The notes: generated by a model not told the origin, from the letters alone. Positions 12,887-58,338 are shown, numbered from the stretch's first letter. The stretch: DNA of 64,000 nt from Candidatus Woesebacteria bacterium GW2011_GWF1_31_35 (GCA_001029755.1 CP011214.1:365767-429766), one strand, 5' to 3'. Program-made: numbers and translations.

Positions 12887-13276
12887 GTGTTCCCTTCAGT
12901 GGGGTAACGAGCGCAACCCCTGCCCTGAGTTAAATAATCTCAGGGGACTTCCCTCATTTATTGCGGGAGGAAGTGGGGACGACGTCAGGTCAGCATGGCC
13001 CTTATGACTGGGGCAACACACATACTACAATGGAGCCGACAATGGGTTGCCAAGCCGCAAGGCGGAGCTAATCCCATCAAACGGCTTCTCAGTTGGGATT
13101 GAGGGCTGCAACTCGCCCTCATGAACATGGAATTGGTAGTAATCGCGGGTCAGCTATACCGCGGTGAATACGTTCTCGCCTTTTGTACACACCGCCCGTC
13201 AAGGCAGTAAAGTTAAAGGTACCCGAACTTCGATTTTGTCGGAGGAAGGTAAATTTAGCGATAAGGCTTAAGTCGT

Positions 13277-33757: not shown

Positions 33758-34157
33758 AATCTAACCTAATATTTATTTTATCACTTGGTAGACTGGTAAT
33801 ACCAATGTCTGAAAGATAAACTTGGCTCTCTGTAGCAATTTTTATATTTTCAGAAGTAAAAAAATTATTTGTTTTAAATTTAAGTTTAATAATAGATTTA
33901 CTAAAATCATTAGAATTCGGCATTAACAAAAAACGCTTTGCATCCCATGTTTTTAATATTCCTTCAGAAGAATATGATATTAAATTTAAATTATTTTCAT
34001 TGTAATCCAGAAATAAATCAACAACTGTTGCCATATTTGCTTTGTCTCCCTCAAGATAAACACTAACATTAATTATATTTTTGGGATAAACCTGAAACAT
34101 TGCCAAGGCCATGACCAATACTGATAATATTTGAATTTTATATTCTTTTATACTCAT
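33747..34157 (-). CDS. Small secreted protein (signal peptide); unknown
   Basis: 136 aa, translationally coupled to its neighbours. Confidence 0.35.
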   Translation of the reverse strand: MSIKEYKIQILSVLVMALAMFQVYPKNIINVSVYLEGDKANMATVVDLFLDYNENNLNLISYSSEGILKTWDAKRFLLMPNSNDFSKSIIKLKFKTNNFFTSENIKIATESQVYLSDIGITSLPSDKINIRLDYEQ

Positions 34158-34978: not shown

Positions 34979-35012
34979 ATATTTAATATATAACTACGAA
35001 AATATACTATCA

Positions 35013-38818: not shown

Positions 38819-41800
38819 TTAATTATTATTATTTTGTAATTCTATTACCCACCAATTAAATTCAACATCGGTATCTAAAGTATCTAAAAACCCAACTGTA
38901 AAGTAACCAATATCTTTACTCTTAACGTACAAAACTTTATTCTGTGTTGATGAAAGGGGAGTTACATAGATTAAAGTATCATTATTAATCTTAGGATTTA
39001 TTATTTTGACCTCATTAGTACTTGCAGTTAATATTGCTTTTCCAGCTGTTGCATTAGTATTAATTTCCCCAGGCACTATTTGAGCCGAATCTGTAGCAGT
39101 AAGAGGTGCGTCGGCGATAACTACAATATTTCCTTTAAGTTTTAAATTTCCTGCAATTTCCACATTTCCTGAAAATGTTATATCTCCATTTGTTTCAATT
39201 TTTATCTTTCCTGCCATTATTTCAACAGGGGCTAAAGCTAATGATTGAACAGAAAGTGCACTATCTAAAGAATTTATTGATTTAGTTGTTAAATTATCTG
39301 ATACAAATAGAGAAGTTATAGCAGCACTGCCTGTAACAAAGAAATTATTGGTAATTATTTCAGATGAAACAAGTTTATCAATACTTGCTGAAGCTGTAGC
39401 TGTGTTTATATTCCAATTAACACTTTCGGCTAAGATTTTTTGACTTTCATCGACACTTCTTAATAATTCTTCTATTTGATCAAGTTTAGAAGATTCAATA
39501 TTATCAGCATATAATGTTCCTGAAATTGTTGCATCGCTATCTACCTCTAAACTATTTGCAGCAATTTCACCACTAAAACTAGCATTTCCTGAAGCATCAA
39601 TTGAGGCAACTTCCAAGTCATCCACTCCTTTAATGGCAAGTCTTGATGCAACTTGACTATTGTCAGGTTGCAAATCAATTATTAAATCAGTATTGGAAAC
39701 GGGAGAGATTAAATTGGTTTGAACAATTGGAGAAATTATTTTATTTTTAATAATTAAATTATCAACTGTAGCTTGGAAAGCGACAAAGTTTTTGCTAACA
39801 AAATCTGTGGTTTCAATTGCACCAGCTTTAATGTTTGCCACGACCACTTCGGCAAAAGATCCAATCTTTTCAGTAATGCCAGTTGGAGTGGAGACAGTGT
39901 AATTGGCAATTGGATTGCCTGAAAGTGTGATGTCACCAGTATTACTAATGGCAAGATCTGGGTCGTAATAATTGTTGGCTACAAATACTAAAATAGTGTC
40001 AGTAGGATTATCTGGGTCCCAATTTTCAAGAGCCGTACCTACAATTTTTCCTGCTTTAGTGGCCTTAGTGCCACGACCAGGGTTATTTGAAGGTGTAATT
40101 GGATCACCAATATTTATTATATTTGAATTAAAACTGATTTTGACAGGAAGACGTCCAGAAAGAGCTACTGGAAGTGGATGATCCTTCTCTTCTATTGAGT
40201 TTTGACCAGTTGCTGTAAAATCACCCCAATTTTGAGTGACAATACCAATTGGATTGTCCGAAGTTGAGGTAGTTTTTGTAAGTTTAGAAATTTGGCGTGT
40301 TTCTGTAGAAACAATATTTCCGTCTTTATCTGATTTTGAATAAATAGTAGTGGTCATTTCTGGAGAAGTCATGACAATGTCTCCAAAATCCACATCAGAT
40401 TTAGTTGGATAAATCTCAGCATAATCTGTAAAAGGTCCGGCATCACAGTCATAAAGTAGGGTTGCACCTGAGGCATCCCAACATACAACATTGTTCGTTG
40501 TGCCAGTAGTATCAAGGGTTAAATAGATACTACCTGCTCCGGAAGCACCTAAAACAAGTGTTGCTTCAGTTGGAGTGGTGTCACCAATGCCGACATTACC
40601 AGTTCCTTTAATTACCATCTTAGTAGACATTGTTTGTATTCCTAATCCAGAACCTAAAGTTGTTCCATTTTGGAAAAAGATATCACTGAGTCCAGTCCCC
40701 GTGCCTAAACCAGCTTGAATAACCATATTCCCGCCATTAACATTAGAACCGCTATCAACAGTTCCACCAGACGCAATAGTTAATGCTCTACCTGCAGTTC
40801 CAGCGGCAGTATCTTCTATCCAAATTTTCCGTGAGGCAGCATTACCTAAACTAAGAATTTCAGTTGGACTTGTTGTCCCGATGCCGACCTTACCTGATCC
40901 CGGCATGAGGGCAAGATCGGCTGTGGCAGCAGTTATTATTTGATTGGTGGTGGTTGCACCGGAGAAGGTTATGCCTGCACCGGCCCCGGTTAAGGCAATC
41001 GCATTTGTAGCGGCGGTAGAGTTGGTTAATATTCCATTCATGGTGATGGCTCCGATTCCGGTCATATCACCGGTGGTATCGATATCCCAATCATTTGAGT
41101 ACAATGCCAAGGTTCCTGCATTACCAATAGTAACTACATCAACTCCCGTTGCTCCAGTGCCGATATTTATAGTGTCAATACCAGTGCCGGTACCCATGTT
41201 TATAGTTCTGGCTACATTTGAAGCACCAACATTAATGATTTGGGAAGCAGCAATGGAGTCAAGGGTGACAGTTCCTGTAGTAGCCTGAAGAGTTAAGCCG
41301 GTGGCGCCAAGAATAGCCAGTGTTCCGTCAGCATCAATATTGTCTCCATTAACAGATAAGTCCCCGGCTGTAGTAATATTTCCCGTTGCGCCAGCCACCT
41401 GGAAGAGAGAACCGGTGCCGACAGAGAGAGTGGCAGAAGGATTGGTAACACCGATACCGACATTACCGATTTTATCAATTACCATCGCATCTGTCAGTGT
41501 TCCATCTTTATTTATATATAAATCCATCTGGCTGCTAATTCTGCCGGCAGAAACGTCGGTCACTCTGCTCCAACCAATCTGCCCGAGCACAGTATCGCCA
41601 ACAGCGGAAGCGGTCGAACGGACTTCGAATATGCCTCCTATGTTACTGGCGCTAGCACCCGAAGAAGACAAAACTAAAACAGAATTAGTACTAGCACCCG
41701 TGGCAACTTCTAAAATTTTACCGTTAGTATTTCCACTTGTCGGATCCGTTGTTCCAACACCAACATTACCAGTATTTGTTATCACAAATTTTGGAGTTCC

Positions 41801-44952: not shown

Positions 44953-45396
44953 ATGGAAGCTAAAGGAGAAAAATCTAATAAATTAATAATATCTGTGTTT
45001 ATTATTACTTTTCTAGTAATTATTTTAATTGTTTTACTTTTCTTTATCAAGAACATAACTTCAGTTTTACCTAAGGCAAAAAATTTAAATTCCGCAGTTT
45101 CTGTTTCTTTTTCAAATTCATATATTTTTGCTTCACCTGTAAGAGCAAAAACTAATGGGGAAGGTATTAGAATTACTGTATTTTTATTGGACGACAATGG
45201 TTTAGGAATTTTTGATAAGAAAGTTATTCTTGGTAATTTAGATAGTCCTATTAAAGTAAAAGATATACAGAGCCTAACTGACGAAACAGGGAAAGCTATA
45301 TTTGATATAAGTTCCAGTTCAAGTGGTGTCTTTTTTATTGAAGCGATTGTTGACAGTAATAAATTACCACAAAGGGTCAAGGTTGTTTTTGATTAA
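44953..45396 (+). CDS. Small N-terminally anchored extracytoplasmic protein
   Basis: 147 aa, signal anchor, beta-rich. Confidence 0.4.
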   Translation: MEAKGEKSNKLIISVFIITFLVIILIVLLFFIKNITSVLPKAKNLNSAVSVSFSNSYIFASPVRAKTNGEGIRITVFLLDDNGLGIFDKKVILGNLDSPIKVKDIQSLTDETGKAIFDISSSSSGVFFIEAIVDSNKLPQRVKVVFD

Positions 45397-45401
45397 TAAT
45401 T

Positions 45402-46172
45402 ATGTTAATTACCACAACTCCTGATATTACTATTAGTGCAACTATAGGAAGTCCGAAGATGGTAATCTATGGATACGCACCCAGTAATTCAAATGTTTTT
45501 TTAAACAGTATCGGGGTATCTTCATATACCCAGGCTGATAATGATGGTTATTATCTTTTTGATGCAGTTTATACATATGATTTTAGTTATCCTGAAATTT
45601 GTGTTCAGGCAGTTGATGAAAAGAAAAGAACAACGCAGCCAACTTGTATTCCACCACTTCCAGCTGAAAAACTGATATATGAAGTTGGTCCCATATTTCT
45701 TTCTCCCACAATCTCTTTAAGTCAAAATAGTGTAGTGAAAAGCGAACAAGCCTATGTGGAGGGAAAGACGTCTCCAAACAAAGAAGTAAATATCTATATT
45801 GCCAAAAATGAAAACTTAAAAAGTTTTTCTTTAGTTGATGCTGTAAATGCTTATTATGTTCCAGTGTTTCAATCGAAATCTAATTCTAATGGCAATTTTG
45901 CTTTCAGTTTGCCCACATCTGATTATTCAAACTATAAAATATTTGTTTCTAGTCGTTTTGGAGATAATTTATCCGCCAAAAGCAATACTTTAACTTTTGT
46001 GGTGACCTCAAAGATAGAATCTTTTCTAGACAGGTTATTAGGATTTATTTTAAAGAACAAATTACTCTCAATAATTATATTGGAGATACTTATCGTCATT
46101 ATACTTATCTTTAAGCTCTTAAAATTGACTACAAGAGGGAAGAAAGATATTCAAAAACAACAAATGATTTGA
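45402..46172 (+). CDS. Secreted beta-rich protein with a C-terminal TM anchor. Its last ~190 bp are duplicated at 47523-47712.
   Basis: 256 aa, C-terminal LLSIIILEILIVIILIFKLLKLTTRGKK. Confidence 0.45.
   Translation: MLITTTPDITISATIGSPKMVIYGYAPSNSNVFLNSIGVSSYTQADNDGYYLFDAVYTYDFSYPEICVQAVDEKKRTTQPTCIPPLPAEKLIYEVGPIFLSPTISLSQNSVVKSEQAYVEGKTSPNKEVNIYIAKNENLKSFSLVDAVNAYYVPVFQSKSNSNGNFAFSLPTSDYSNYKIFVSSRFGDNLSAKSNTLTFVVTSKIESFLDRLLGFILKNKLLSIIILEILIVIILIFKLLKLTTRGKKDIQKQQMI
45957..46146 (+). repeat. Direct repeat copy 1 (~190 bp, ~90% identical to copy 2)
   Basis: Aligned by eye with 47523-47712: ...gaatcttttctagacaggttattaggatttattttaaagaacaaattactctcaataattatattggagatactt... Confidence 0.7.
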
Positions 46173-46256: not shown

Positions 46257-47441
46257 ATGGAAAATGGCATAATTAAGAGGGATATCTTTGATAAACTTGA
46301 AAGTTTTTTGGGTACAAAAAATATAATTGTACTTCATGGTGCTAGGCAAGTTGGGAAAACTCATATTATGTACTTTATTGAAAAGTTTCTTCAAAAAAGG
46401 GGGGAAGAAACTCACTATATTGATCTTGAAGATTCACGATTTGTAGAGATACTAGACCGAGGTGTTGATTCATTTACTGCGTATCTTAAGGGTGAGGGAA
46501 TTAAAAACAAAGTAACGGTTTTTATAGATGAGATTCAATATCTTCAAGATCCGTCATCTTTTTTAAAATTGATTGTAGATCATCATCCTGAAATTCAACT
46601 TATTGTTTCAGGTTCTTCAAGTTTTAATATCAAATCAAAATTTTCCGATTCATTAGTCGGTAGAACTGTAAATTTTGAGATTTTTCCACTTTCCTTTTCT
46701 GAATTTTTAAGATTCAAAAAGATAAATACTTCAATGACTGACAAGTTACTTAGTTTGTACAATGAATATATGGCCTACGGAGGATACCCAAAAATTGTTT
46801 TAGATGATGATATAAAGCATAAAGAAATTTATTTACAGCAGATAATTGATACCTATATTAGGAAAGATATTTCAGATCTTGCCAATGTCAAAGATACTAA
46901 GAAATTCAATGACTTATTAAAAGTATTAGCATCATTTAGTGGGCAACTTTTAAAAGTGTCTGAGCTTTCAGATATTTGTGGTTTGGCCTTACAAACTATA
47001 AATAGTTATTTAGAGATATTGGAGGAAACATATATTATAAAGCTAGTTTCTCCGTTTTCAACAAGTGCCAAAGTAGAGATAGCTAAAACTCCTAAAATAT
47101 TTTTTTATGATACAGGAATACTCCAAATGCTTTGGTTTAAAAGGCTCCAAAATGGAAATGTTGGAAATATTTTTGAAACCAGTGTCTTTTCCGAACTCGT
47201 TAAAAAGTTTGGGATAGAAAATATTAACTATTGGAGAAATAAAAATATGAATGAAATTGATTTCATCTTAAATAAAAATAATGAAATACTGCCAATTGAG
47301 GTTAAAAGTAATTTTTCTCAGTTTAAAAAATCAAAAATAAATTCATTTTTAGAAAAATATAAAATTAAGGACTTTTATGTAATAGGATTATTAGGAGAAA
47401 AGAACAAAGAATATTACAAATACCCTTGGGAGATTATTTAA
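46257..47441 (+). CDS. AAA-family ATPase with a DUF4143 domain (second copy)
   Basis: Walker A LHGARQVGKTHIMY, Walker B FIDEIQ. Same architecture as 30188-31423. Confidence 0.7.
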   Translation: MENGIIKRDIFDKLESFLGTKNIIVLHGARQVGKTHIMYFIEKFLQKRGEETHYIDLEDSRFVEILDRGVDSFTAYLKGEGIKNKVTVFIDEIQYLQDPSSFLKLIVDHHPEIQLIVSGSSSFNIKSKFSDSLVGRTVNFEIFPLSFSEFLRFKKINTSMTDKLLSLYNEYMAYGGYPKIVLDDDIKHKEIYLQQIIDTYIRKDISDLANVKDTKKFNDLLKVLASFSGQLLKVSELSDICGLALQTINSYLEILEETYIIKLVSPFSTSAKVEIAKTPKIFFYDTGILQMLWFKRLQNGNVGNIFETSVFSELVKKFGIENINYWRNKNMNEIDFILNKNNEILPIEVKSNFSQFKKSKINSFLEKYKIKDFYVIGLLGEKNKEYYKYPWEII

Positions 47442-47522
47442 ACAATCTTAATTTTTTCCATCAAAATTATTTCATAAATGATGAAATAAAATAGTTTGCG
47501 AGTTAAAACAAAGTCTGATAAA

Positions 47523-47712
47523 AATGGTGATAATCTATCTTCCAAAAGTAATACATTAAACTTTGTAGTTACTTCAAAAACAGAATCTTTTCTAGATAGG
47601 CTACTAGGATTTATTTTAAAGAACAAATTATTCTCAATAATTATATTGGAGATACTTGTAGTCATTATTCTTATCTTTAAGCTCTTAAAATTGACTACAA
47701 AAGGCAAGAAAA
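47523..47712 (+). repeat. Direct repeat copy 2. It contains the remnant ORF 47496-47753, which encodes a copy of the C-terminus of gene 45402-46172.
   Basis: The ORF translation ...SKSNTLNFVVTSKTESFLDRLLGFILKNKLFSIIILEILVVIILIFKLLKLTTKGKK parallels the upstream gene's C-terminus. Confidence 0.7.
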
Positions 47713-47755
47713 GGCATACAGAAAGAGATTATCTAAAGTATATTACTTCTTAATT

Positions 47756-48793
47756 TTATTTTAATGTGTAATAGGTTGATCTTCCTTTACCTTTACGTTC
47801 GATTAGTTCTAAATCAAGCAGTTTTCGAAAGTCGATTGTGCGTGTTGCCTTGGCTCTATTTGTTAGTTTTGCGTAATTACGATCAGTGATAAAACCATTA
47901 TTTTTAATATAATCAACAATTTTTTTGTGAAATGGTTCAAGTTTGGCATTTGGTGTTTTTTCTAATTTAGGTAAAAGTTTTTGAACACGTAGGAGTTCGT
48001 CAATTAAACCGTCAGTAAAATATTCAAGCCAGGAGGTAAAATCGATAGAATCTTTTATCTCGTTGTAATCACCATATTCTCCAACTGTTTGAAAGTACTT
48101 AGTAATATTTTGATTGTAATAGTTTTCGAAACTAAATAAATTAAAAGTATTAAGTCCCATTTTAGCTAGTAGTATTTTTGTAGCTAGACGAGTAGTTCTA
48201 CCATTGCCATCCATGAATGGATGGATAATAACCATTTGTTTATGAAATATTCCTGCAATTATTAAAGGGTTAATTTTATTACTATTTTCATTTGTAAATT
48301 TAATTAAATCTTTGACAAGATTTTTAACTATTTCAAAATCAGGGGGCAGATATACTATTTTGCCTGTTCTTGGATCATTTACGATGACAGGTTTTAGTCG
48401 GATTTTTCCAGATTCATTGTTTGGAAGAAGATCTTTAGTGATTTGTATATGAATATCAAGTATAAACTTAAGTGTTAATTCAAGCTTTTTTGAACGAAGT
48501 AATTTATTAAAGTTTTCTAAAGCTACATTATAGTTAAGAACTTCTCTTTCACTGTCTCGAATGTTAACCGGTTTTGATTTTAGTATATTTTTAACTTCCG
48601 TAAGTGGCAATGGATTGCCTTCAATGCTGGTTGAAGAATATGAAGAAACTTCTTGTGCTTTTTTTTCAAATTCGACCAAGACGATTTTTGAAAACTGACG
48701 CTCATTTAAATCTCTAACAAGATTGTTAATTTTGGTGATATTACTTAAGAGCTGATCGGTGATAGAATATTTTGGAGTAAACATACTAGTCAA
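47756..48793 (-). CDS. Fic/DOC family protein (putative AMPylase)
   Basis: Canonical Fic motif HPFMDGNGRTTR. Confidence 0.85.
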   Translation of the reverse strand: MTSMFTPKYSITDQLLSNITKINNLVRDLNERQFSKIVLVEFEKKAQEVSSYSSTSIEGNPLPLTEVKNILKSKPVNIRDSEREVLNYNVALENFNKLLRSKKLELTLKFILDIHIQITKDLLPNNESGKIRLKPVIVNDPRTGKIVYLPPDFEIVKNLVKDLIKFTNENSNKINPLIIAGIFHKQMVIIHPFMDGNGRTTRLATKILLAKMGLNTFNLFSFENYYNQNITKYFQTVGEYGDYNEIKDSIDFTSWLEYFTDGLIDELLRVQKLLPKLEKTPNAKLEPFHKKIVDYIKNNGFITDRNYAKLTNRAKATRTIDFRKLLDLELIERKGKGRSTYYTLK

Positions 48794-48839: not shown

Positions 48840-49820
48840 TTACTTCTTAGGAAGATTGTCTTTGAATTTATCTTTTAATTCTTCAACTTCTGTAATTTCT
48901 TCTTCTAATTTCTCTTCAAGTTTGACCTGTTTTGATTTAAGTTTCTTATAGACTAAGACTATTAGAAGAGTGATAATTGCAATGAACAAAACAATTGCCA
49001 TGATCGGCCAAACTGGGATTACCCAAAGACTGGTATTTTCTAAAAGTACTTTTCCTGCTTCACCATAGTTTGCAGTTAAATCGATACTATACTTACCAAA
49101 CATCCAATTTTTACCCAATTCTGTTTTATAAAGTCTTTTAGCATCAGGGAATATGTTTTTAGTTTCTAAAATAGTTTCTCCAACATTTTTACCAAACCAA
49201 TTTCTAAGTACTAATTGTCCCTTAGGGGTTATATGGTAACCACCTTTATTTAATATCTCAAAAGTAACTGGTACTGGACCAAACTGCAAGAAAACTGGTA
49301 CTTTAAAGTTACTTATAAAAGCTGATTCAGTAACTGGACCATTTATTCTAATACTAACTAAACCAACAATTCTTGGAGAAACAGTTGATAGTTGCTCGTT
49401 AATAGTTGTTGCTTCTGGAAGTTGTCCTACTTGTTCAAAAATAATTGCAACATACCTTCCACCAGGAAGGGTGTCTTTAGGAACTGTAACTTTAAAATTA
49501 ACCTTTAATACGTCTCCACTTGCAATGGTTGCTTTCTCGTAAGGAAGTTTTACCCAAGTATTCTCCTCATTTTCAAGTAAAGTAGGGGAGCCATCATCAT
49601 TATTTACAATAAAATTAACAACTTTGATGTTGCCTGAAACTGGAACAATCGATTCATTGAAAAACTTAATTTGCATGTTTTCAGTTTTTCCTGCATCAAT
49701 TACTATAGTTTGTCTTGCAGGAGCAACTACTAAAGGAAGTCTATCTTGTGCCTTAACTTCAAATGCAATAAATACTCCCAAAATCAAAATTGTTATTGTT
49801 AGGGCAAGTTTATTTTTCAT
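48840..49820 (-). CDS. Secreted protein with a C-terminal TM anchor and charged coiled-coil tail (DUF916/DUF3324-like architecture)
   Basis: Signal peptide MKNKLALTITILILGVFIAFEVKA; C-terminal WVIPVWPIMAIVLFIAIITLLIVLVYKKLKSKQ. Confidence 0.4.
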   Translation of the reverse strand: MKNKLALTITILILGVFIAFEVKAQDRLPLVVAPARQTIVIDAGKTENMQIKFFNESIVPVSGNIKVVNFIVNNDDGSPTLLENEENTWVKLPYEKATIASGDVLKVNFKVTVPKDTLPGGRYVAIIFEQVGQLPEATTINEQLSTVSPRIVGLVSIRINGPVTESAFISNFKVPVFLQFGPVPVTFEILNKGGYHITPKGQLVLRNWFGKNVGETILETKNIFPDAKRLYKTELGKNWMFGKYSIDLTANYGEAGKVLLENTSLWVIPVWPIMAIVLFIAIITLLIVLVYKKLKSKQVKLEEKLEEEITEVEELKDKFKDNLPKK

Positions 49821-49825
49821 TTTAA

Positions 49826-51340
49826 TTAGAATATTGGAATTGCAGTGTATTTAACTTTATTATAATAATATCCAGCAGGTTGTGTAGCAGTAATATCAAT
49901 TCTATAACAAATATAAGCACTATCTGCATCAGCTGGAGTTGCTTTATACATTATCGATTGTCTTATTTCTGAAGCTGCAATGTCAGCAATTTGTTTGGTG
50001 TTAAAAGTATCACCACCTGTACCATCCCAATCAAACACCGCACTAGTTCCTGTCACATTTTGTAATGAATAACCTAGTCCCACATAGCTTGATGGATCAG
50101 CAGTCCAATCTTGTAAGGTTGATTCTGTACATTCGGGAGCGGTTTTACAAACAGTATCCTGAATACAATTTACAGATTCACCACCATTGCCTGCACAAGC
50201 TACTCCATCTTTGCCCATTTGATCATTTTCTTCAATATAGACATTGTATCCAGCTGAAGCATTAGTCGAAATAGTTATCTGTTGATTAGCATTATGAGCT
50301 TCTGTTGTGCTTCCATAGGTTGGTGAAAGAGTTCCCCAAGGAACAGATGTTGCTGTTGAATTAATAGAGTTGGAATCTCTTGTTATTCCACAGTATGATC
50401 CAGTATCGGCTGTAACTGCAGCAACTGTTAAAGAAAGTGTTTCATCAACTGTTGCTGAAATTAAGACACCCTCAACTGGTGCAATTGTGACATCCGATTG
50501 ATCCAAAGTATTAGTCGAGCCATCTCTTGTCTTAATATTAATTTGATATGCATCTGCCTGACCTTGTGTGTGGGTAGTTAATGGGGCGGGATTAATAACT
50601 CCAGGAGCATTATCAATTGTTACAGTGACAGCTTTGCTTGCTGCACAGGTTGCGGCTGCTCTTGTAAATAATATTGTATGATCAGTTGATGTACCATTTC
50701 CTGCTGTAACTGTTGCTGAACCCCAACCTGCAGAAGTACAAAGTGCAATATCCGATACTGTAACATCACCAGCTGCAATTGTACTAAAATCAAAACCATT
50801 GTTTGCTATAGAAGCTGCTGTATCTGGGATTCCATCACTAGCTCTTCCAGCTGTTCCCGGTTTGGCTGCAGGGATAGTTATTAAAAGAGTTCCACCGATA
50901 GGTACTTCTGTGGTTGTTGTAAAGGAAATTGCTAAAGATCCTGATTGTGTAGCTACTAAAAATCCATTCGCTTCTAAAGTAGCTGATAATGCTACAGTTG
51001 TGTTAAATGTAGTTCCACCTACAGCTACTATGTTAGCTACTGTATAATTTACATTTCCTACACATCCACCTTCTATTGAATTGGTGGCACAAATAGTGTC
51101 TTTAGGAAAAAGATGGTTAGTTGTGTTATCTGCATTTCCAGAAGCATCGATTGTCACAAGGGAAGCTCCGGAAGTTCCCGATGCAACACCTGCTCTATAT
51201 GAAAATCTTGAATTAGAAAGACTTGCTGATGCTGCTGTAAAGTTTGCTGAATGAGTTTTTTTGGAAGGAAGTATAAAACGGTATATTAATGCACCAAAGA
51301 CCAAAACTAAGGATAAAACAAGCACTTTTCTTTTAAACAT
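49826..51340 (-). CDS. Secreted Thr/Ser/Gly-rich beta protein ending in QPAGYYYNKVKYTAIPIF
   Basis: Signal peptide; C-terminal motif shared with 52283-53014. Confidence 0.45.
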   Translation of the reverse strand: MFKRKVLVLSLVLVFGALIYRFILPSKKTHSANFTAASASLSNSRFSYRAGVASGTSGASLVTIDASGNADNTTNHLFPKDTICATNSIEGGCVGNVNYTVANIVAVGGTTFNTTVALSATLEANGFLVATQSGSLAISFTTTTEVPIGGTLLITIPAAKPGTAGRASDGIPDTAASIANNGFDFSTIAAGDVTVSDIALCTSAGWGSATVTAGNGTSTDHTILFTRAAATCAASKAVTVTIDNAPGVINPAPLTTHTQGQADAYQINIKTRDGSTNTLDQSDVTIAPVEGVLISATVDETLSLTVAAVTADTGSYCGITRDSNSINSTATSVPWGTLSPTYGSTTEAHNANQQITISTNASAGYNVYIEENDQMGKDGVACAGNGGESVNCIQDTVCKTAPECTESTLQDWTADPSSYVGLGYSLQNVTGTSAVFDWDGTGGDTFNTKQIADIAASEIRQSIMYKATPADADSAYICYRIDITATQPAGYYYNKVKYTAIPIF

Positions 51341-51362
51341 ACCTATAAGATAATATGGGACT

Positions 51363-52277
51363 TTACCTTTTCTTTGTCAAGTACTTCTTCAGGTTCAAAA
51401 TTAATAAAACTAAGAATAAACTTATTGCCATTAATGAAAATGGAAAAGCAAATGTAGTTACTTCAGTTTTTTTAATTTCTGCGCTTTCATCCATTCTAAA
51501 TTCTAAATTAGCCCTATAAATTCCAATAAGAGGCTTTTTAGCTATTTTGCAATCTATTAATTCTTCGTTATTAATACAAGGAATTTTTCTAGAATAACCC
51601 GAAAGAACATTTAAAGGAGCAAGAGTTAATGTGGAATTTAAATTCGTGCCTTGAACAATAATTTTGCCTGTTGGTTTCCAAAATGAATTTCCATTATTTT
51701 GTAAAATTAATGAGTAATTAATATTTGAAAGTGAATCAATTATAATTGGAGCTTTAAAAGTTGTTATCTCTGCTGATTTTTTTGGATTCCCGTCTTTTGA
51801 AATAGTGAGTAAAATATTACTTCCAATCTGTGTTTTGTAAAAAGATGCATTTTCTTCCAAAATGTCTGTGGGTTTGTCAGTTTCAAAGACTAAAGTTAAA
51901 AAATGATCTGTTTCAGAAGTACCCTCAGGTGGTGAAATTACTAAACTGACATCAATTTTTTCTGTAGATTTAATTGTAAATGGGTTTTTATCATACATTA
52001 CCCAGTCAGGAGCAAGATTTTCTGTTAAATCCACATTGCCATTTTCATCTGAAGGGACAAAATAAACTACTTTGGGAGTTAGGATTGTATCTCCGCCAAG
52101 ATTTTCTATACTAAAAACTTGTCTTATTTCTTTGTCTGGTTTAATCATCACTTCAAAAATTGGGGGAGTAATAGATAATGAAATTGCATTTTGTGCGTTT
52201 ACAATATTATTAGATAAAAATATAGAAATTAATAAAGATAATAGAGATAGTATTGTAACTAATTTATATTTTTTCAT
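51363..52277 (-). CDS. Secreted protein with a C-terminal TM anchor + KKYLTKKR tail
   Basis: Signal peptide MKKYKLVTILSLLSLLISIFLSNNIVNA; C-terminal AISLFLVLLILNL. Confidence 0.4.
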   Translation of the reverse strand: MKKYKLVTILSLLSLLISIFLSNNIVNAQNAISLSITPPIFEVMIKPDKEIRQVFSIENLGGDTILTPKVVYFVPSDENGNVDLTENLAPDWVMYDKNPFTIKSTEKIDVSLVISPPEGTSETDHFLTLVFETDKPTDILEENASFYKTQIGSNILLTISKDGNPKKSAEITTFKAPIIIDSLSNINYSLILQNNGNSFWKPTGKIIVQGTNLNSTLTLAPLNVLSGYSRKIPCINNEELIDCKIAKKPLIGIYRANLEFRMDESAEIKKTEVTTFAFPFSLMAISLFLVLLILNLKKYLTKKR

Positions 52278-52282
52278 TTTTA

Positions 52283-53014
52283 TTAATAACCAGGTATAGC
52301 CGTAAACATTATAATATTTTGATATGTTCCCGCAGGTTGTGTGTTTGAAACATTAACTTTATAAGTAATTGTTGCAACTCTTGATCTACCTACGTTAACC
52401 GAACTCATTATAGTTACTTTGCTCTCAGAATTACTGGTATCAGCAAATTGTCTAAAATATGTGGAATTAGTAAAGTCAGCTGGAATATCATCGCCTGTCA
52501 TATTAAAACCAAATCCATATTTTGAATTTGATGTCCAAACAGCAGCAGAAGTTTCGCTACAAGTTGTGTCACAGAGTGTATCAGGAATGGTATTTATTGA
52601 ATTAAAAGTCTTTAAAGGATTATTTTCAGAAGCCTTAACAGAATATCCTCCAGCCCCACCAGTTGAAACTGTTAGGGTTGAAGTATCAGTTGAGGGGGTA
52701 CCAACTGTTAATGATCCGAAATTAATTTGAATATCAGAAATTGAAAAAGAGAAAGGAATAATTGAATGGATGTATTGAAATCCTGCCTTGACTTTATAAC
52801 CTGCTGATGAATAAAGTCCAGGAGCACCTTGCCCTAGAGTTGAATCAAGCTTGAAATTAGAAGAAGAGGGAATCCCTGCACCAGAGTTAAAATTAGGGAA
52901 TTGTATACGGTAGTTAGGTGATTCAATTTTTGATTGTGCTGAGACAAAAGGAGAAAAGTAAGTAAACGAAAATAGTATTAAAATACTTAAGGTAAAAGAA
53001 AAGAAAGTTTTCAT
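52283..53014 (-). CDS. Secreted beta protein ending in QPAGTYQNIIMFTAIPGY (WxL-/SCPU-like C-terminus)
   Basis: Signal peptide; C-terminal motif. Confidence 0.45.
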   Translation of the reverse strand: MKTFFSFTLSILILFSFTYFSPFVSAQSKIESPNYRIQFPNFNSGAGIPSSSNFKLDSTLGQGAPGLYSSAGYKVKAGFQYIHSIIPFSFSISDIQINFGSLTVGTPSTDTSTLTVSTGGAGGYSVKASENNPLKTFNSINTIPDTLCDTTCSETSAAVWTSNSKYGFGFNMTGDDIPADFTNSTYFRQFADTSNSESKVTIMSSVNVGRSRVATITYKVNVSNTQPAGTYQNIIMFTAIPGY

Positions 53015-53385
53015 TTTTTACTATTTAATTCTTCAATCTCACTTTCTAGTACCTTTTCTTCATCTTTTAATACCTTAATAACTTCTTCTGCTTTTTCTTT
53101 TTTAATCTCGATTTTACGAAGTTTTGAAATAAGATAAATTATTATTCCCATTGAAATAAAGAAATAGATTACAAAAAGAAACGAATAGTGAAATATTTCA
53201 ACCCAAGCAATAACTAAAATTGAAGTAACTATAATAGTAGCAATATCAACCCACTTTCTAACTTTTAAAAAAGTCTGGTTTTTTTTGAATACAAAATAAG
53301 ATCCTGAGTATAAAACAATAATAATTGCCAAGATCCAAAGCATATATTTTAATTCTAAACTATTCTCCAATTTCTGTATAGACAA
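53011..53385 (-). CDS. Small membrane protein with a C-terminal coiled-coil
   Basis: 124 aa, 3 TM helices, EEVIKVLKDEEKVLESEIEELN. Confidence 0.35.
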   Translation of the reverse strand: MSIQKLENSLELKYMLWILAIIIVLYSGSYFVFKKNQTFLKVRKWVDIATIIVTSILVIAWVEIFHYSFLFVIYFFISMGIIIYLISKLRKIEIKKEKAEEVIKVLKDEEKVLESEIEELNSKK

Positions 53386-53589
53386 ATGGTTTTGGTGTGA
53401 GTTTCAAATTAGGAAATACCCATTTCTCAGCTTTTGACCAGTCTATATATTCGGTAGAATCTGCCTTTTGCCAAAAAAGTCCTTCTTCTTTTTCTGTTAT
53501 AAATTTTGGTATCCTTTTTAATTTTTTCATATTTTAGATAAGATGTGATAATTAACAGTTTAGTTAAAATAGGGTAGAATATCAATCAA

Positions 53590-55890
53590 ATGATATATGA
53601 TCATAGAAAAGTAGAAAAAAAGTGGCAGGAAAGATGGGAAAAAGAAAAACTTTATACTCCAAATTTAACTAATTCTAAGAATAAATTTTATAACCTTTGG
53701 ATGTTTCCATATCCATCAGCAGAAGGACTTCATGCAGGGCATGCATTTGCTTCAACTGGAAGTGATATCTATGGAAGATTTATGAGAATGAATGGCATGA
53801 ATGTATTTCAACCGTTTGGATATGATTCATTTGGAATCCATTCCGAAAACTATGCCATTAAAATTAATGAAAATCCTAATGAAGTAGTTAAAAGAACTAC
53901 AAAACACTATGAAGAACAAATGAGGTCAATGGGTCATGGATATGATTGGACAAAAACAGTAACTACATCAGATCCTGATTATTATAAATGGACACAATGG
54001 TTATTTATCCAGATGTATAAAAAAGGATTAGCCTATAAAAATAAAGCCTCAGTTAATTTTTGCCCATCTTGTAAAACAGTTCTTGCAGATGAACAAGTAG
54101 TAAGTCCCTCCCAAGCAGGTAAAGAACCAAAAGATAAAGATGGGAAAGTTGTTAAGGATGGTAAAGATTTAAAGGTATGTGAACGTTGTGGAACTTTAGT
54201 TTTGAAAAAAGATTTAGACCAGTGGTTTTTTAAAATTACAGATTATGCAGATAGACTTCTAGAAGGTTTAAATAAAATTAATTGGAGTGAAAGAGTAAAG
54301 ATAGCCCAAAAAGCATGGATAGGAAAATCTGAAGGAATGATTATTAATTTTGAAGTAGAAGGAAGTAAAGATACTTTAAGTGTGTTTACTACAAGACCAG
54401 ATACATTGGATTCAGCAACTTTTATAGCTAAATCTTCAAAAGAATTAGATACCTTGGAAGAAAGTAAAGAAAAATTAGGTAAGTTTACAGGCCTTTATGC
54501 AATTAACCCTATTAATGATAGGAGACTTCCCATTTGGGAAACTAATTATGTTGAAGGAAGTTATGGAACAGGTGTAATAATGGGAGTTCCTGCATACGAT
54601 GAAAGTGATATGGATTTTGCTAAAAAGTATGGTATTGATATAGTCGAAGAAGATTTAAATGAAATACTTTGGAAAGAGATTAAAGATAAAGGTTGGGGAG
54701 AAAAAAATACTAATTACCATTTAAGAGATTGGTTGGTAAGTCGACAGAGATATTGGGGAGCACCAATTCCTATGGTTAATTGTTCAAAATGTGGTTGGCA
54801 GACAGTATCTGAGGATGAACTTCCAATTCTTTTACCTAATATTTCAGATTATAAACCAGAGGGAACAGGAAAAGGACCTCTAGCAAATCATCCTGATTTT
54901 TATAAGACAAAATGTCCTAAATGTAATAGTGATGCTATCCGAGAAACAGATGTAATGGATACATTTGTAGATAGTTCATGGTATTTTTTAAGATATCCAA
55001 GTGTGGGAATAGAAAATAAACCTTTTGATAAAGAAGTTACTAAAAAATGGTTACCTGTTGATCTTTATTTTGGTGGAGCAGAGCATTCTGTGCTTCATTT
55101 AATGTATGCAAGATTTGTAACAATGGTTCTATCTGATTTAGGTTTAGTTTCTTTTGAAGAACCGTTTCCAAAATTTTTTGCTCACGGATTAATGATTAAA
55201 GATGGAGCCAAAATGAGTAAATCTAGGGGTAATGTGGTTAATCCTGATGAGTATATAGAAAAATACGGAGCAGATACATTAAGACTATATGTAATGTTTA
55301 TGGGTCCAATGGATGGTGATCCTGATTTTAGAGATACAGGAATTGAGGGGATGCAAAGGTTTACTAAACGTGTTTGGAATTTATTTCACAAACCTTTAAT
55401 AGAATCTGAAATTAAAGATCAGAAGATCTTATACAAAATGCATCAGACTATAATAAAGGTAACCAAAGATATACAAGAATATAAGTATAACACAGCAATT
55501 GCTGCAATTATGGAATATGTAAATGTATTAACTCCACTTGATAAATTAAACAAAGAATCTTTGATGGTTCTTGCAAAACTTCTCGCCCCATTTGCACCAC
55601 ACTTAACAGAAGAACTTTGGATAGAAATTTTAGATCAAAAGGGTTCAGTCCATATCACAAATTGGCCTAGGGGGATTGAAAGTTACACTAAAAATGAAAC
55701 AATAACTATTCCTGTACAAGTAAATGGAAAATTAAGGGGACAGATAGTTGTTGAATCAAGTAAGTTAAACTCCAAAGACGAAATATTAAAACTTGCAAAA
55801 GAGGATATAAAAGTTGCAAAATGGTTAAAAGGTGGAAAAGTTAAAAAAGAAATATTCATTCTTAATAAACTTATTAATTTCGTCGTCTAA
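53590..55890 (+). CDS. leuS: Leucine--tRNA ligase
   Basis: HIGH-type motif PYPSAEGLHAGH; zinc knuckles CPSCK/CERCG; KMSKS motif KMSKSRGN; 766 aa. Confidence 0.9.
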   Translation: MIYDHRKVEKKWQERWEKEKLYTPNLTNSKNKFYNLWMFPYPSAEGLHAGHAFASTGSDIYGRFMRMNGMNVFQPFGYDSFGIHSENYAIKINENPNEVVKRTTKHYEEQMRSMGHGYDWTKTVTTSDPDYYKWTQWLFIQMYKKGLAYKNKASVNFCPSCKTVLADEQVVSPSQAGKEPKDKDGKVVKDGKDLKVCERCGTLVLKKDLDQWFFKITDYADRLLEGLNKINWSERVKIAQKAWIGKSEGMIINFEVEGSKDTLSVFTTRPDTLDSATFIAKSSKELDTLEESKEKLGKFTGLYAINPINDRRLPIWETNYVEGSYGTGVIMGVPAYDESDMDFAKKYGIDIVEEDLNEILWKEIKDKGWGEKNTNYHLRDWLVSRQRYWGAPIPMVNCSKCGWQTVSEDELPILLPNISDYKPEGTGKGPLANHPDFYKTKCPKCNSDAIRETDVMDTFVDSSWYFLRYPSVGIENKPFDKEVTKKWLPVDLYFGGAEHSVLHLMYARFVTMVLSDLGLVSFEEPFPKFFAHGLMIKDGAKMSKSRGNVVNPDEYIEKYGADTLRLYVMFMGPMDGDPDFRDTGIEGMQRFTKRVWNLFHKPLIESEIKDQKILYKMHQTIIKVTKDIQEYKYNTAIAAIMEYVNVLTPLDKLNKESLMVLAKLLAPFAPHLTEELWIEILDQKGSVHITNWPRGIESYTKNETITIPVQVNGKLRGQIVVESSKLNSKDEILKLAKEDIKVAKWLKGGKVKKEIFILNKLINFVV

Positions 55891-56485
55891 TCAAAGGCTT
55901 ATATTATTTTTTCTATTAGGACTTGTCTTAATCGGTTTTGGCATATTTTTTTATAAAAACGGGGGATTATCCTCGGGGGATAAGGTAGAGGTTTTAAATT
56001 CTTCTACAGAAGGTGGAAATGATAGTTTAGAAATAGTTGTAGAAATTGCCGGAGCGGTTGAAAAACCTGGGGTTTATAAACTTCCTAATGATTCAAGAAT
56101 TGATGATTTATTAATTATTTCTGGTGGAGTTTCGGTGAATGCTGACAGGATTTGGATGGAAAAATACATAAATAGGGCAGCTAAATTAATAGATGGACAA
56201 AAAGTATTTATTCCAGACATTAGTAAGCAAATAAATAATGAGAGTGCTAATAATAATGTGGGTATCAAACTAGATCAAGGTACTTTTGGCAGTCAAACTT
56301 CAGGACTGATAAATATTAATACTTCAACCCTTTCAGAACTAGATAAACTGCCCGGAATTGGCCCTGTCTATGGGCAAAGTATCATTGAACACAGACCTTA
56401 CTCAACTTCAGAAGAATTGGTGTCAAAAGGAGCAATTAGTAAATCAGTCTATGAAAAGATAAAAAATTTAATAAGTGTCTTTTAA
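55832..56485 (+). CDS. comEA: ComEA-like DNA-binding competence protein (helix-hairpin-helix)
   Basis: N-terminal TM; C-terminal INTSTLSELDKLPGIGPVYGQSIIEHR HhH motif. The annotated start overlaps the leuS 3' end by 59 nt. Confidence 0.65.
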   Translation: MEKLKKKYSFLINLLISSSNQRLILFFLLGLVLIGFGIFFYKNGGLSSGDKVEVLNSSTEGGNDSLEIVVEIAGAVEKPGVYKLPNDSRIDDLLIISGGVSVNADRIWMEKYINRAAKLIDGQKVFIPDISKQINNESANNNVGIKLDQGTFGSQTSGLININTSTLSELDKLPGIGPVYGQSIIEHRPYSTSEELVSKGAISKSVYEKIKNLISVF

Positions 56486-57540
56486 TGAAAATCTTCATTT
56501 TTCTATTTATTATTATATTAATTTTAGTAAGATTTTTTTTACAAAAACCAAACTTTAAAAATGGAGATACTATAAGAATCACTGCAAGAGTTTTATCGGA
56601 ACCATTGGTTTTTTCAACGTCCCAATATTTAACTCTTGAAGGGATAAAGATGTATTTACCTAAAATACCCGAAATAACTTACGGAGATAAGGTAGTCGTT
56701 GAAGGAAAAGTTGATGGAAATAAATTAATTAACGCAAAATTGATAGAGTTTAAAGTTAAGAAAGCTGGGTTTTTATATAAATTTAGAAATAGTTTAATAA
56801 AATATTATAAAAGGATTCTTCCAGAGCCTTATAGTAGTCTAATTGCAGGAACTGTGATTGGGTCAAAAAATATGCCAGAAGACTTTTGGAATAAATTAAA
56901 AGCTACTGGTACTGCCCATGTAGTTGTTGCATCAGGCACAAATGTAACTTTGACAGCAGGATTTTTATTAAGTATCTCAACATACTTTTTAAAAAGAAAG
57001 AAAGCTATTTGGATATGTTTAGTCGGAATTATTATTTATATAGTTCTTTCTGGTTTTGATGCTCCAATTGTTAGGGCTGGAATAATGGGGGCAATTTTAT
57101 TCATTGCTCAAGAAAAAGGCAGGCTAGTTTCCGCATGGAGATTATTATTTTTAACCGGTTTAATTATGTTACTAATTAAACCTATTTGGATTACTGATCT
57201 TGGCTTTATATTATCCTTTGTTGCAACAGCCTCGTTAATGCTTTTTCAGAAAAGGATTAACAGTTTACTTAAATTTGTTCCAAATATACTTCGCGAAGGT
57301 TTATCAACCTCACTTGCTGCTCAAATAGGAGTAGCACCAATAATTTACGCAACATTCGGACAATTCAATATATTCTCACCTTTAATTAACGCATTAGTAT
57401 TATGGACAATTCCCTATATCATGATTTTAGGAGCAATTGGGGGAATAGTAGGCTTAGTTATTCCTATTTTAGGTAAAGTTATACTTTTAATTGCTTTTCC
57501 ATTAGTTTGGTGGTTTGTGGGAATAGTTAATCTTTTTTAA
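56485..57540 (+). CDS. comEC: ComEC/Rec2 membrane channel domain (DUF4131 + competence domain), encoded as a separate ORF
   Basis: Polytopic; adjacent to comEA; immediately followed by the MBL-domain ORF. Confidence 0.65.
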   Translation: MKIFIFLFIIILILVRFFLQKPNFKNGDTIRITARVLSEPLVFSTSQYLTLEGIKMYLPKIPEITYGDKVVVEGKVDGNKLINAKLIEFKVKKAGFLYKFRNSLIKYYKRILPEPYSSLIAGTVIGSKNMPEDFWNKLKATGTAHVVVASGTNVTLTAGFLLSISTYFLKRKKAIWICLVGIIIYIVLSGFDAPIVRAGIMGAILFIAQEKGRLVSAWRLLFLTGLIMLLIKPIWITDLGFILSFVATASLMLFQKRINSLLKFVPNILREGLSTSLAAQIGVAPIIYATFGQFNIFSPLINALVLWTIPYIMILGAIGGIVGLVIPILGKVILLIAFPLVWWFVGIVNLF

Positions 57541-58338
57541 ATGAAATACTTAATAAACTTAAGCTTGCTATCTCTAGTTGCAATATTTTTAGCAATTACT
57601 AATATTTCAAGTGATAATCTTTCAATAATTAATTGTGATGTAGGACAAGGGGATGCAACCTTAGTTCAATTTAAGAATAATCAAATATTAATTGATGGAG
57701 GTCCGGATAAATCTGTATTAAGTTGTTTGGGTGAGTATATGCCATTTTATGATAGGACTATAGAACTAGTAATTTTAACCCATCCAGAGAAAGATCACTT
57801 TGGAGGATTAATTGATGTATTTAAAAATTATAATGTTAGTAAATTTGGAACAACTAACAGTGAATCTGGCAGTCTAGAATATAAAGCGCTAATTAATGAG
57901 GTGGGGAGTAAGGGATCAGATAGTATAATCTTAGATAACAGGGTAAATCTTAGACTAGGAAAGATATATTTAGATATATTGAACCCTTCAAAGGAAACAA
58001 CTTTTAAAGGTTCAAATAATGATGGAGTAGTAGTTCTTTTAAAATATGATAAATTCAAGGCTCTTTTTACAGCAGATGTGGAAAATGAAGTTAGTGATTA
58101 CCTTTCGACAAATGATAAAGTCCAAAACGTTAACTATATCAAAGTAAATCATCATGGAAGTAAGAACGGACTGTCGGAAAAATTACTTCAGGCTACCAAG
58201 CCTAAAATTGCAGTTATTAGTGTAGGTGCTAAAAATTCATATGGACATCCCCACAAAGAAATATTAGACCTTTTGGAAAAATATAATGTAAAAATATTAA
58301 GAACAGATCAAATAGGTAATATAGAAATTGAAAATTGA
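57541..58338 (+). CDS. ComEC C-terminal metallo-beta-lactamase domain as a separate ORF
   Basis: INCDVGQGDATLV...HPEKDHFGG...VNHHGSKNG. Its start codon abuts the stop of the upstream ORF. Confidence 0.65.
   Translation: MKYLINLSLLSLVAIFLAITNISSDNLSIINCDVGQGDATLVQFKNNQILIDGGPDKSVLSCLGEYMPFYDRTIELVILTHPEKDHFGGLIDVFKNYNVSKFGTTNSESGSLEYKALINEVGSKGSDSIILDNRVNLRLGKIYLDILNPSKETTFKGSNNDGVVVLLKYDKFKALFTADVENEVSDYLSTNDKVQNVNYIKVNHHGSKNGLSEKLLQATKPKIAVISVGAKNSYGHPHKEILDLLEKYNVKILRTDQIGNIEIEN

Follow-up and report, generated by a model that had tools for sequence, protein, structure and literature searches.

A probable Microgenomatia version of the Pam pilus in Candidatus Woesebacteria, with membrane-anchored partner proteins that resemble WxLIP

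Introduction

Bacteria of the candidate phyla radiation (CPR) represent a large share of bacterial diversity and are apparently attached to other cells, with an attachment machinery that is barely known. The subject of the present study is a locus of five genes located within a 64,000-nucleotide stretch of DNA (this whole stretch is referred to here as the window) from Candidatus Woesebacteria bacterium GW2011_GWF1_31_35 (GCA_001029755.1, CP011214.1:365767-429766), the Woesebacteria being placed within the Microgenomatia of the CPR. An initial interpretation, made from the nucleotide sequence without database searches (designated here as the sequence-only reading), had regarded this locus as an uncharacterised surface-structure system with likeness to WxL clusters and to SCPU/Csu-type pili. 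The analysis presented here suggests that the locus is probably a Microgenomatia (Woesebacteria) version of the CPR Pam pilus, i.e. of a fibre built by usher-less, chaperone-assisted donor-strand exchange.

The Pam system was described in Candidatus Mycosynbacter amalyticus, the filaments of which were examined by cryo-electron microscopy (cryo-EM) and the pilins of which, PamA and PamB, were identified (bioRxiv 10.64898/2026.03.03.709456). Each of these pilins consists of a nine-strand β-sandwich N-terminal domain (NTD), a single linker strand and a truncated immunoglobulin (Ig)-like C-terminal domain (CTD), and polymerisation occurs by donation of the linker strand into a neighbouring subunit without an usher. 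The pam operon further specifies a tip pilin with a single domain (PamT, 25.6 kDa), PamC and PamD, which are PapD/FimC-like proteins with a C-terminal transmembrane (TM) helix, and PamR, an RbmA-like tether with a TM helix, while the two-domain pilins of M. amalyticus number three (PamA, PamB and PamE). The donated linker and the acceptor site of the CTD were reported to be best conserved, and the cysteines of the pilins to be paired. Homologs have been reported only in CPR bacteria, mainly in Saccharimonadia and Microgenomatia; the Microgenomatia homologs of PamA were obtained by a language-model search, as exemplified by a Roizmanbacteria protein with ~21% similarity. The PamT and Pam_pilin_C models present in NCBIfam trace to the same preprint (bioRxiv 10.64898/2026.03.03.709456).

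The second system of relevance is represented by the WxL clusters, in which a WxLIP partner is always encoded together with two kinds of WxL proteins, one small and one large, that have the same C-terminal domain (PMC9772566). WxLIP is the current name of the DUF916 (PF06030)-DUF3324 (PF11797)-TM protein, and AlphaFold predicts that a strand of WxLIP completes the β-sandwich of WxL (PMC10599100). PDB entry 9i25 represents WxLIP bound to a long WxL protein.

Organization of the locus and its PamT-like subunit

All five ORFs proposed by the sequence-only reading are present on the minus strand of the window, exactly at the positions it had assigned to them (Table 1), and the C-terminal sequences it had quoted are correct. 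The ORFs are tightly packed in an operon-like manner, with a spacing of 5-22 nt or, between the 124-aa ORF and the 243-aa gene, a 4-nt overlap; the window has a G+C content of ~30%. An identical counterpart (100%) of the 304-aa protein occurs in Candidatus Woesebacteria bacterium RIFOXYC1_FULL_31_51, the lineage of which (Patescibacteria group, Microgenomates group) indicates a CPR host. The reported restriction of Pam to the CPR fits this host, Microgenomatia being a class with reported PamA homologs.

Neither an ORF listing nor family scans of the window proteins revealed an usher-like ORF in or beside the locus, and the locus encodes no LPXTG protein or sortase. The lack of an usher gene, together with the Pam-type parts described below, supports the proposal of a secreted surface-fibre locus that operates without an usher. 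Pfam scans of the five proteins yielded nothing meaningful, with WxL, DUF916, DUF3324, SCPU and TasA remaining unmatched even at E<=1, and the five proteins showed no match to these families at E<=1 in NCBIfam (June 2026 release).

The 243-aa protein was found to consist of a signal peptide, a highly conserved N-terminal segment of ~60 aa and a Pam-type C-terminal pilin domain (residues 96-243), which ends in QPAGTYQNIIMFTAIPGY. It matched the NCBIfam model PamT (NF058579; E=1.6e-13, 50.6 bits against a curated cut-off of 240 bits) in a collinear manner, with residues 11-243 corresponding to positions 9-241 of 241, as well as Pam_pilin_C (NF058581; E=2.5e-9, 37.4 bits against a curated cut-off of 55 bits) across residues 96-243. 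All 49 scanned relatives of this protein also matched both models below these cut-offs (best E=2.7e-17 for PamT and 1.8e-13 for Pam_pilin_C), which at the sequence level indicates homology of the family to PamT rather than equivalog-level membership. The family alignment (designated A3) displays 64-81% identity across Microgenomatia and includes two conserved cysteines. By analogy with PamT, a role as tip or initiator subunit may be inferred for the 243-aa protein.

The mature N-terminal 60-70 residues of this protein (residues 27-95; window positions 52730-52936, minus strand) form the best-conserved part of the whole locus. This segment, which is located outside the Pam_pilin_C domain, contains an invariant SIIPFSF sequence and three S-x-[NG]-[YF]-x-[ILV] repeats.

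The 504-aa protein and the shared C-terminal domain

The 504-aa protein encompasses an N-terminal hydrophobic signal, a β-sandwich NTD (residues ~31-290), a conserved linker and a Pam-type CTD (residues 332-504), with QPAGYYYNKVKYTAIPIF as its C-terminus. Its C-terminal ~150 aa are homologous to those of the 243-aa protein (BLASTP, 33% identity, E=5e-17), and the same pair of domains (residues 96-243 and 332-504, respectively) was aligned at the profile level (hhalign, 99.3%, E=1.6e-20). The QPAGxYxN...[FY]TAIP ending, which the sequence-only reading had recognised in both proteins, is real and not a chance resemblance, and closes this homologous CTD.

When the 504-aa protein was modelled with AlphaFold2 from an alignment of 60 sequences (pLDDT 81.9), the model contained an N-terminal helix, strands at residues 35-286, an isolated strand at residues 302-308 and a β-domain at residues ~350-502. 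Compared with the published description of PamA, this predicted layout matches in its signal peptide, β-sandwich NTD, single linker strand and C-terminal β-domain, with the strand at residues 302-308 representing a candidate donor strand. When 12-residue windows of the 504-aa family were ranked by conservation, the C-terminal motif (residues 487-498) was placed first and the linker (residues 289-300) second. The family has ten invariant or near-invariant cysteines. The PAGYY turn (residues 489-493) is the sole segment of the monomer model with a pLDDT below 50, which would fit a site that becomes ordered upon strand insertion. Pam_pilin_C was matched by 16 of the 60 scanned relatives of the 504-aa protein (best E=2.8e-4), and a relative at 54% identity, among the matches listed, is a Roizmanbacteria protein.

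Foldseek comparison of this model with the PDB returned generic multi-Ig, MSCRAMM and chaperone-usher pilin matches only (TM-scores of 0.1-0.2), with no Pam structure among them, and HMMER searches of PDB sequences with the 504-aa and 243-aa proteins and with profiles A2, A3 and A5 yielded nothing relevant. For the donor-strand-type fold that had been anticipated, the prediction provides the β-sandwich NTD, the linker strand and the C-terminal β-domain, and the PDB matches are generic.

Two 504-type pilin genes are present in some Microgenomatia loci (positions 9705-11144 and 12339-13808 of locus L024; positions 7796-9253 and 9430-10653 of locus L047), and the number of major pilins therefore varies within Microgenomatia.

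The sequence-only reading had itself raised a scenario that would speak against a common system, in which the 243-aa and 504-aa products are otherwise unrelated secreted β-rich proteins, the C-terminal motif of which reflects recent local paralogy and has no bearing on donor-strand biology. Neither protein has a Pfam family, and the generic fold matches of the 504-aa model with their low TM-scores would be in agreement with this scenario. However, the paralogy is old, as both genes form distinct orthologous groups that are found in the same order in Woesebacteria, Roizmanbacteria and Shapirobacteria. Furthermore, the C-terminal domain is linked to curated Pam pilin models, and the partner proteins are predicted to have the fold of strand-donating chaperones (see below), so that recent paralogy is regarded as highly implausible.

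Partner proteins and their relationship with WxLIP

The 304-aa and 326-aa proteins are full-length, collinear paralogs with similar mature N-termini (23% identity, E=3e-13). An AlphaFold2 model of the 304-aa protein, built from 52 sequences (pLDDT 92.4), is represented by two Ig-like β-sandwich domains, preceded by a signal peptide and followed by a C-terminal TM helix (residues 280-303). The 326-aa protein is composed of a signal peptide, two beta-rich domains, a TM helix and a longer, charged, coiled-coil-like cytoplasmic tail, and may act either as a second chaperone or as a membrane tether. The combination of a signal peptide and a C-terminal TM helix, which had been ascribed to these interleaved proteins, was confirmed in both.

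When the 304-aa model was compared with the PDB using Foldseek, the first match was the Enterococcus faecium WxLIP structure 9i1y (E=2.5e-10, TM-scores of 0.39/0.43), and 9i25 was also matched. CsuC was next in this ranking (E=6e-9), followed by RbmA (4kkp, E=9e-9), CfaA, FimC and DraB. The WxL chain of 9i25 was absent from the top 50 PDB fold matches of the 504-aa model. An exhaustive profile search (E<=1e-3) showed that the partner family in the CPR comprises 6,812 clusters at 50% identity. Among 150 representatives of this family, the commonest Pfam match was PF06030 (WxLIP_PGBD), which was observed below threshold in seven (best E=1.1e-4), and a single representative matched an NCBIfam fimbrial-chaperone model (E=1.8e-4).

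To test this link, WxL loci were located on annotated Enterococcus, Bacillus, Listeria and Melissococcus plasmids by means of a motif seed that matched genuine annotated WxL genes. The comparison profiles comprised seven WxLIP proteins, 15 small WxL proteins and eight PapD-like chaperones of Escherichia coli K-12. In hhalign comparisons, the CPR partner family matched WxLIP at 93.2% (E=2.9e-7) across 110 collinear columns of the DUF916 domain, and at 69% (E=4.4e-5) when the signal peptide and TM helix were removed. The controls for this comparison spanned 0.1-6%, and included the partner family without signal peptide and TM helix against the reversed WxLIP profile (0.4%, E=0.17), the 243-aa family against WxLIP (6.2%, E=0.006) and the partner family against WxL (0.5%, E=0.13). 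The PapD-like chaperones were matched neither by the partner family (0.2%, E=0.27) nor by WxLIP (0.7%, E=0.086), and HMMER revealed no link between the partner family and the PDB WxLIP chain.

These results moderately support a remote homology of the partner proteins to WxLIP, as judged from their sequence profiles, rather than Pfam-level membership, and the assumption that the proteins with a signal peptide and TM helix resemble DUF916/DUF3324 (WxLIP) partners was supported by the top fold match (9i1y), the PF06030 matches and the two hhalign values. Their likeness to PapD-type chaperones is at the level of the predicted fold only. The WxLIP link of the CPR partner proteins is the one new element of the locus, and is not mentioned in the Pam preprint.

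Comparison with WxL clusters and with other surface fibres

The locus and the WxL clusters of Bacillota are alike in their monoderm-type envelope and in their part list (PMC9772566, PMC10599100). In both, the partner consists of a signal peptide, two Ig-like domains and a TM helix, and WxLIP both heads the PDB fold matches of the 304-aa protein and is the sole characterised family to which this protein is linked by profile. Strand complementation would be a further common element, a WxLIP strand being predicted to complete the WxL sandwich. Conversely, the subunits encoded here have no detectable WxL domain and lack tryptophans at the WxL positions, and WxL proteins have been described as peptidoglycan-bound surface complexes, not as filaments.

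The difference in subunits was also evident from family searches. Across the 109 relatives of the motif-bearing proteins (49 of the 243-aa and 60 of the 504-aa protein), no Pfam match to WxL (PF13731), SCPU (PF05229) or TasA/camelysin was observed at E<=0.1. Profile comparison with the 15 genuine WxL proteins gave hhalign values of 0.6% for the 243-aa family profile and 0.3% for a merged, broader profile, and the sole local alignment with WxL (AGGYSV with AGWTL) was not significant. Membership of the motif-bearing proteins in the WxL family, as the sequence-only reading had envisaged, is therefore unsupported, as is their kinship with SCPU/Csu pilins, for which neither the window proteins nor the 109 relatives gave an SCPU Pfam match. 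The suggested comparison with TasA/camelysin (Peptidase_M73) was likewise negative, with no Pfam match and no TasA among the top PDB fold matches of the 504-aa model.

The resemblance of the partners to WxLIP allows for a different interpretation, according to which the locus specifies a non-polymerising surface complex of the WxL-cluster kind, in which each subunit is retained at the cell surface by a membrane-anchored WxLIP-like partner, which completes its C-terminal β-sandwich, and the NTD of the large subunit is displayed as an adhesin. In both fold and profile comparisons, no characterised proteins come closer to the 304-aa and 326-aa proteins than WxLIP, the part list is that of WxL clusters (PMC9772566, PMC10599100), and polymerisation of the subunits encoded here is predicted by analogy with Pam. 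The subunits, however, are linked by sequence to Pam pilin models and not to WxL, and the inter-domain linker, being the second most conserved region of the 504-aa protein, fits a donated strand and is hard to reconcile with a simple adhesin. Because of these Pam links and the strong conservation of the linker, and given that the Pam proteins of M. amalyticus form filaments as visualised by cryo-EM, a non-polymerising complex is considered rather unlikely.

Compared with the chaperone-usher pili (Csu, Pap and Fim), the 304-aa model matches CsuC (E=6e-9), CfaA, FimC and DraB at the fold level, and the mechanism proposed here, in which complementation of an incomplete Ig-like domain by a donor strand precedes strand exchange, would be a common principle. 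The locus differs from these systems in that there is no outer membrane and no usher, and in that the putative chaperone is TM-anchored rather than soluble. Furthermore, no profile similarity to the eight E. coli PapD-like chaperones (0.2%) and no SCPU Pfam match were observed, and the pilin has two domains, with the internal linker, and not an N-terminal extension, being donated in Pam.

Comparison with the Pam pilus

The locus and the Pam system are both found in a CPR host, all parts carry Sec signal peptides, and no usher is present. The single-domain small subunit is of the same size (243 aa, compared with 25.6 kDa for PamT), and the two-domain pilin combines an NTD sandwich, a linker strand as well as a Pam-type CTD, with conservation of the linker and the C-terminal site and with paired cysteines. 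The partners, as in the case of PamC and PamD (compared by description only), have two Ig-like domains and a C-terminal TM helix, and consistent sub-threshold matches to PamT and Pam_pilin_C were obtained. The term 'uncharacterised' that had been applied to the system is thus inappropriate, since it matches the CPR Pam pilus, for which the NCBIfam models PamT and Pam_pilin_C exist; the locus probably represents a new, divergent example of such a pilus, and the Pam system itself has already been described.

A number of observations weigh against this assignment. The locus is very divergent, its NCBIfam scores being far below the curated cut-offs (50.6 as opposed to 240 bits, and 37.4 as opposed to 55 bits), and the 504-aa protein of the window itself matched no Pam model in the NCBIfam scan. 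One two-domain pilin is encoded here, compared with three in M. amalyticus. The ATP-synthase neighbourhood stressed by the preprint was not found, the sole ATP-synt_ab match in the window representing Rho. The candidate for the tether of the system, which is encoded by a sixth gene (g256; see below), is inverted in the window and has no signal peptide, with the inversion also being observed in the closest relatives. No filament has been reported for Microgenomatia in the cited Pam and WxL literature, and the likeness to Pam was assessed indirectly, with NCBIfam models and published descriptions.

Other differences concern the genetic context. The gene order is simpler in the locus, which is usually adjoined by leuS and has no ATP-synthase, CorB or MFS neighbourhood, and a conserved polytopic membrane protein is encoded upstream, which is not described in the available portion of the Pam preprint. 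The assignment to a Pam-type pilus, for which the small subunit, the major pilin and the partners all argue, is nevertheless retained as the probable one.

Conservation of gene order and accessory membrane proteins

To assess synteny, 80 loci from species-representative genomes were compared. The order 243-304-504-326 was kept in most of these, and the informatively titled records were nearly all from Microgenomatia (Woesebacteria, Roizmanbacteria and Shapirobacteria), many of the other titles being uninformative or inconsistent. In ~38 of the 80 loci, a divergently oriented leuS gene is located upstream. Many records with a typical Microgenomatia locus are titled uncultured Gammaproteobacteria bacterium (L006, L008, L009, L013, L017 and others), and odd titles were also observed for L020 (Bathyarchaeia), L016 (Omnitrophota) and L061 (Nevskiaceae). 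These titles look like mislabels or contaminated bins.

In the 124-aa ORF, three hydrophobic segments precede a charged, coiled-coil-like tail, in agreement with its previous description as a small coiled-coil membrane protein. Its start is to be revised: as a small ORF located upstream extends across the listed TTG, the ATG at position 53343 is preferred and probably represents the true start (~110 aa). In all of the loci that could be evaluated (76 of 76), the ORF directly upstream of the PamT-like gene encodes a membrane protein. In the close relatives of the window the encoded protein has ~110 aa and three TM segments, compared with 200-250 aa and 5-6 TM segments elsewhere, and homology between the shorter and the longer version was evident from hhalign (96%, E=4.7e-9), with a value of 1.4% for the reversed control. 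This membrane protein is thus a conserved component, which is shortened in the lineage of the window. Its Pfam matches were faint and limited to sensor membrane modules (6TM_PilS, MASE11 and 7TMR-DISM).

A sixth gene, for which the signal-peptide and TM features of 39 homologs were surveyed, is elsewhere usually located 3' of the 326-aa gene in the same orientation, and specifies a signal peptide, a beta-rich ectodomain and a TM segment. By its layout, the product is a candidate for a PamR-like tether. The homolog in the window, g256, displayed only a weak Pfam match to CarboxypepD_reg.

In L033 (positions 9810-12127) and ~10 other loci, a competence block (comEA/comEC/MBL-fold) is present between the 304 and 504 homologs. 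The possibility that a 3.3-kb gap, which separates these homologs in many loci, harbours extra pilins was rejected, as the gap corresponds to the inserted comEA/comEC block. In the window, genes of the comEA/comEC block are located beyond leuS (Table 1), and pilus and DNA-uptake genes are repeatedly neighbours.

Proposed assembly and significance

The genes and their paralogous relations, the folds predicted for their products, the sequence-based links to Pam models and WxLIP, and the conservation and synteny described above led us to propose, by analogy with the Pam system of M. amalyticus, a scheme for polymerisation, subunit order, chaperone activity and anchoring. In this scheme, all subunits would be exported via Sec, and the anchored 304-aa and 326-aa proteins would keep pilins that had just crossed the cytoplasmic membrane at its outer face, where a β-strand of the partner would be inserted into the incomplete C-terminal Ig-like domain of the pilin. 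The 243-aa PamT-like protein would start the fibre as its distal subunit, after which copies of the 504-aa protein would be added, each donating its linker strand into the groove of the CTD of the previous subunit. The terminal QPAGxYxN...[FY]TAIP strand may form one wall of this acceptor groove. Growth would end, and the fibre be tethered, by incorporation of a TM-anchored protein, i.e. the 326-aa paralog or the product of the sixth gene. The fibre would likely allow the cell to contact a host, a prey cell or a surface.

With regard to the last step, a variant of the scheme, which is compatible with a Pam-type fibre, restricts chaperone function to the 304-aa protein and assigns to the 326-aa protein the role of a PamR-like terminator and membrane tether. 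In favour of this variant, identity between the two paralogs amounts to only 23%, most loci retain a gene for each, the 326-aa gene comes after that of the major pilin, and RbmA, the fold assigned to PamR, ranks high among the PDB matches of the 304-aa model (4kkp, E=9e-9); the lack of a signal peptide in the sixth-gene candidate tether of the window genome would also be accommodated. Collinearity of the two partners over their whole length, with similar mature N-termini, and the presence in M. amalyticus of two chaperones besides PamR argue against such a division of labour, which is considered possible, if somewhat doubtful.

The Pam-type reading of the locus implies a compact system that is conserved across Microgenomatia, usually beside leuS, and that consists of a four-gene core, an upstream membrane protein and a downstream TM-anchored protein, the proteins being too divergent for current curated models. 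As such, the locus would offer a minimal gene set for the study of usher-less donor-strand assembly. The link between the partners and WxLIP joins two systems that have been the subject of separate studies, and hints at a mechanism that the WxL clusters, associated with virulence and colonisation in Enterococcus, Listeria and lactobacilli, may share. It is tentatively conceivable that Pam pili and WxL clusters are divergent descendants of one ancient monoderm assembly system. Such an ancestor, equally speculative in its composition, might have combined a membrane-anchored, strand-donating two-Ig protein (of the WxLIP or PamC/PamD type) with small and large subunits that share an incomplete C-terminal β-sandwich. 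If this common origin were true, WxL clusters may also employ donor-strand complementation or exchange, and the CPR family, with its 6,812 partner clusters, would constitute one of the largest and least studied bacterial surface-assembly systems.

Neighbouring genes in the window

Table 1. Features of the Pam-type locus and of neighbouring regions, with positions relative to the first nucleotide of the window
Feature	Position	Strand	Basis
Small polytopic membrane protein, 124 aa	53011-53385	-	ORF
PamT-like small pilin, 243 aa	52283-53014	-	ORF and NCBIfam matches
Membrane-anchored chaperone-like protein, 304 aa	51363-52277	-	AlphaFold2, Foldseek, hhalign
PamA-like major pilin, 504 aa	49826-51340	-	AlphaFold2, C-terminal domain homology, conservation
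Second membrane-anchored chaperone-like paralog, 326 aa	48840-49820	-	Full-length homology to 304-aa protein
Sixth-gene homolog (g256), 256 aa, beta-rich, C-terminal TM and basic tail	45402-46172	+	Synteny
comEA/comEC-block genes	55832-58338		
56-aa ORF (MKKLKRIPKFITEKEEGLFWQKADSTEYIDWSKAEKW...)	53360-53530	-	
Promoter-like site of Fic gene	48822-48794		11/12 matches
Fic/DOC-family gene	47756-48793	-	
85-aa ORF	47496-47753	+	
AAA_14/DUF4143 ATPase gene	46257-47441		
Big_1-domain gene	44953-45396	+	
1,892-aa protein	38819-44497	-	PF02899, E=1.2e-9
Wzy_C/TPR membrane protein	36836-38680		
Cohesin/dockerin region	32765-36740	-	
Dockerin-domain protein with GH79 C-terminal domain	35013-36740	-	
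Dockerin-domain protein	34154-34978	-	
Cohesin-domain protein	32765-33757	-	
Second DUF4143 ATPase gene	30188-31423		

An 85-aa ORF (Table 1) repeats the 3' end of g256, including the TM helix and the basic tail, to which it is highly similar by eye, and is located on the far side of an AAA_14/DUF4143 ATPase gene. The ATPase gene was therefore apparently inserted with duplication of the 3' end of g256; a second DUF4143 ATPase gene is present elsewhere in the window. On its other side, g256 starts 5 nt after a Big_1-domain gene, which encodes an N-terminal TM segment and ends in a double stop (TAA TAA). For this junction, a frameshift fusion, loss of function or another export route are possibilities.

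The 326-aa gene is directly followed, on its own strand, by a Fic/DOC-family gene. Scanning for promoters and terminators gave no useful signal in DNA this rich in AT (59 sites compared with 46 expected), apart from a strong promoter-like site that immediately precedes the Fic gene. As this gene is absent from homologous loci and has its own promoter-like site, it represents an insertion and does not belong to the pilus operon. The small ORF ahead of the membrane-protein gene, which overlaps the TTG start of the 124-aa ORF, encodes 56 aa and presumably resembles the N-terminal part of BrnA/CopG-type antitoxins, of which it may be a truncated remnant.

The 1,892-aa protein combines an N-terminal phage-integrase SAM-like domain with a long Gly/Thr/Ala-rich β-type region, and a homolog adjoins the pilus locus in L002. 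A 'tail fibre-like protein' has been reported to co-localise with pam operons (bioRxiv 10.64898/2026.03.03.709456), to which the 1,892-aa protein may correspond. Finally, the genes for a cohesin-domain protein and two dockerin-domain proteins, which are followed by a gene for a Wzy_C/TPR membrane protein, suggest a small cellulosome-like surface assembly.

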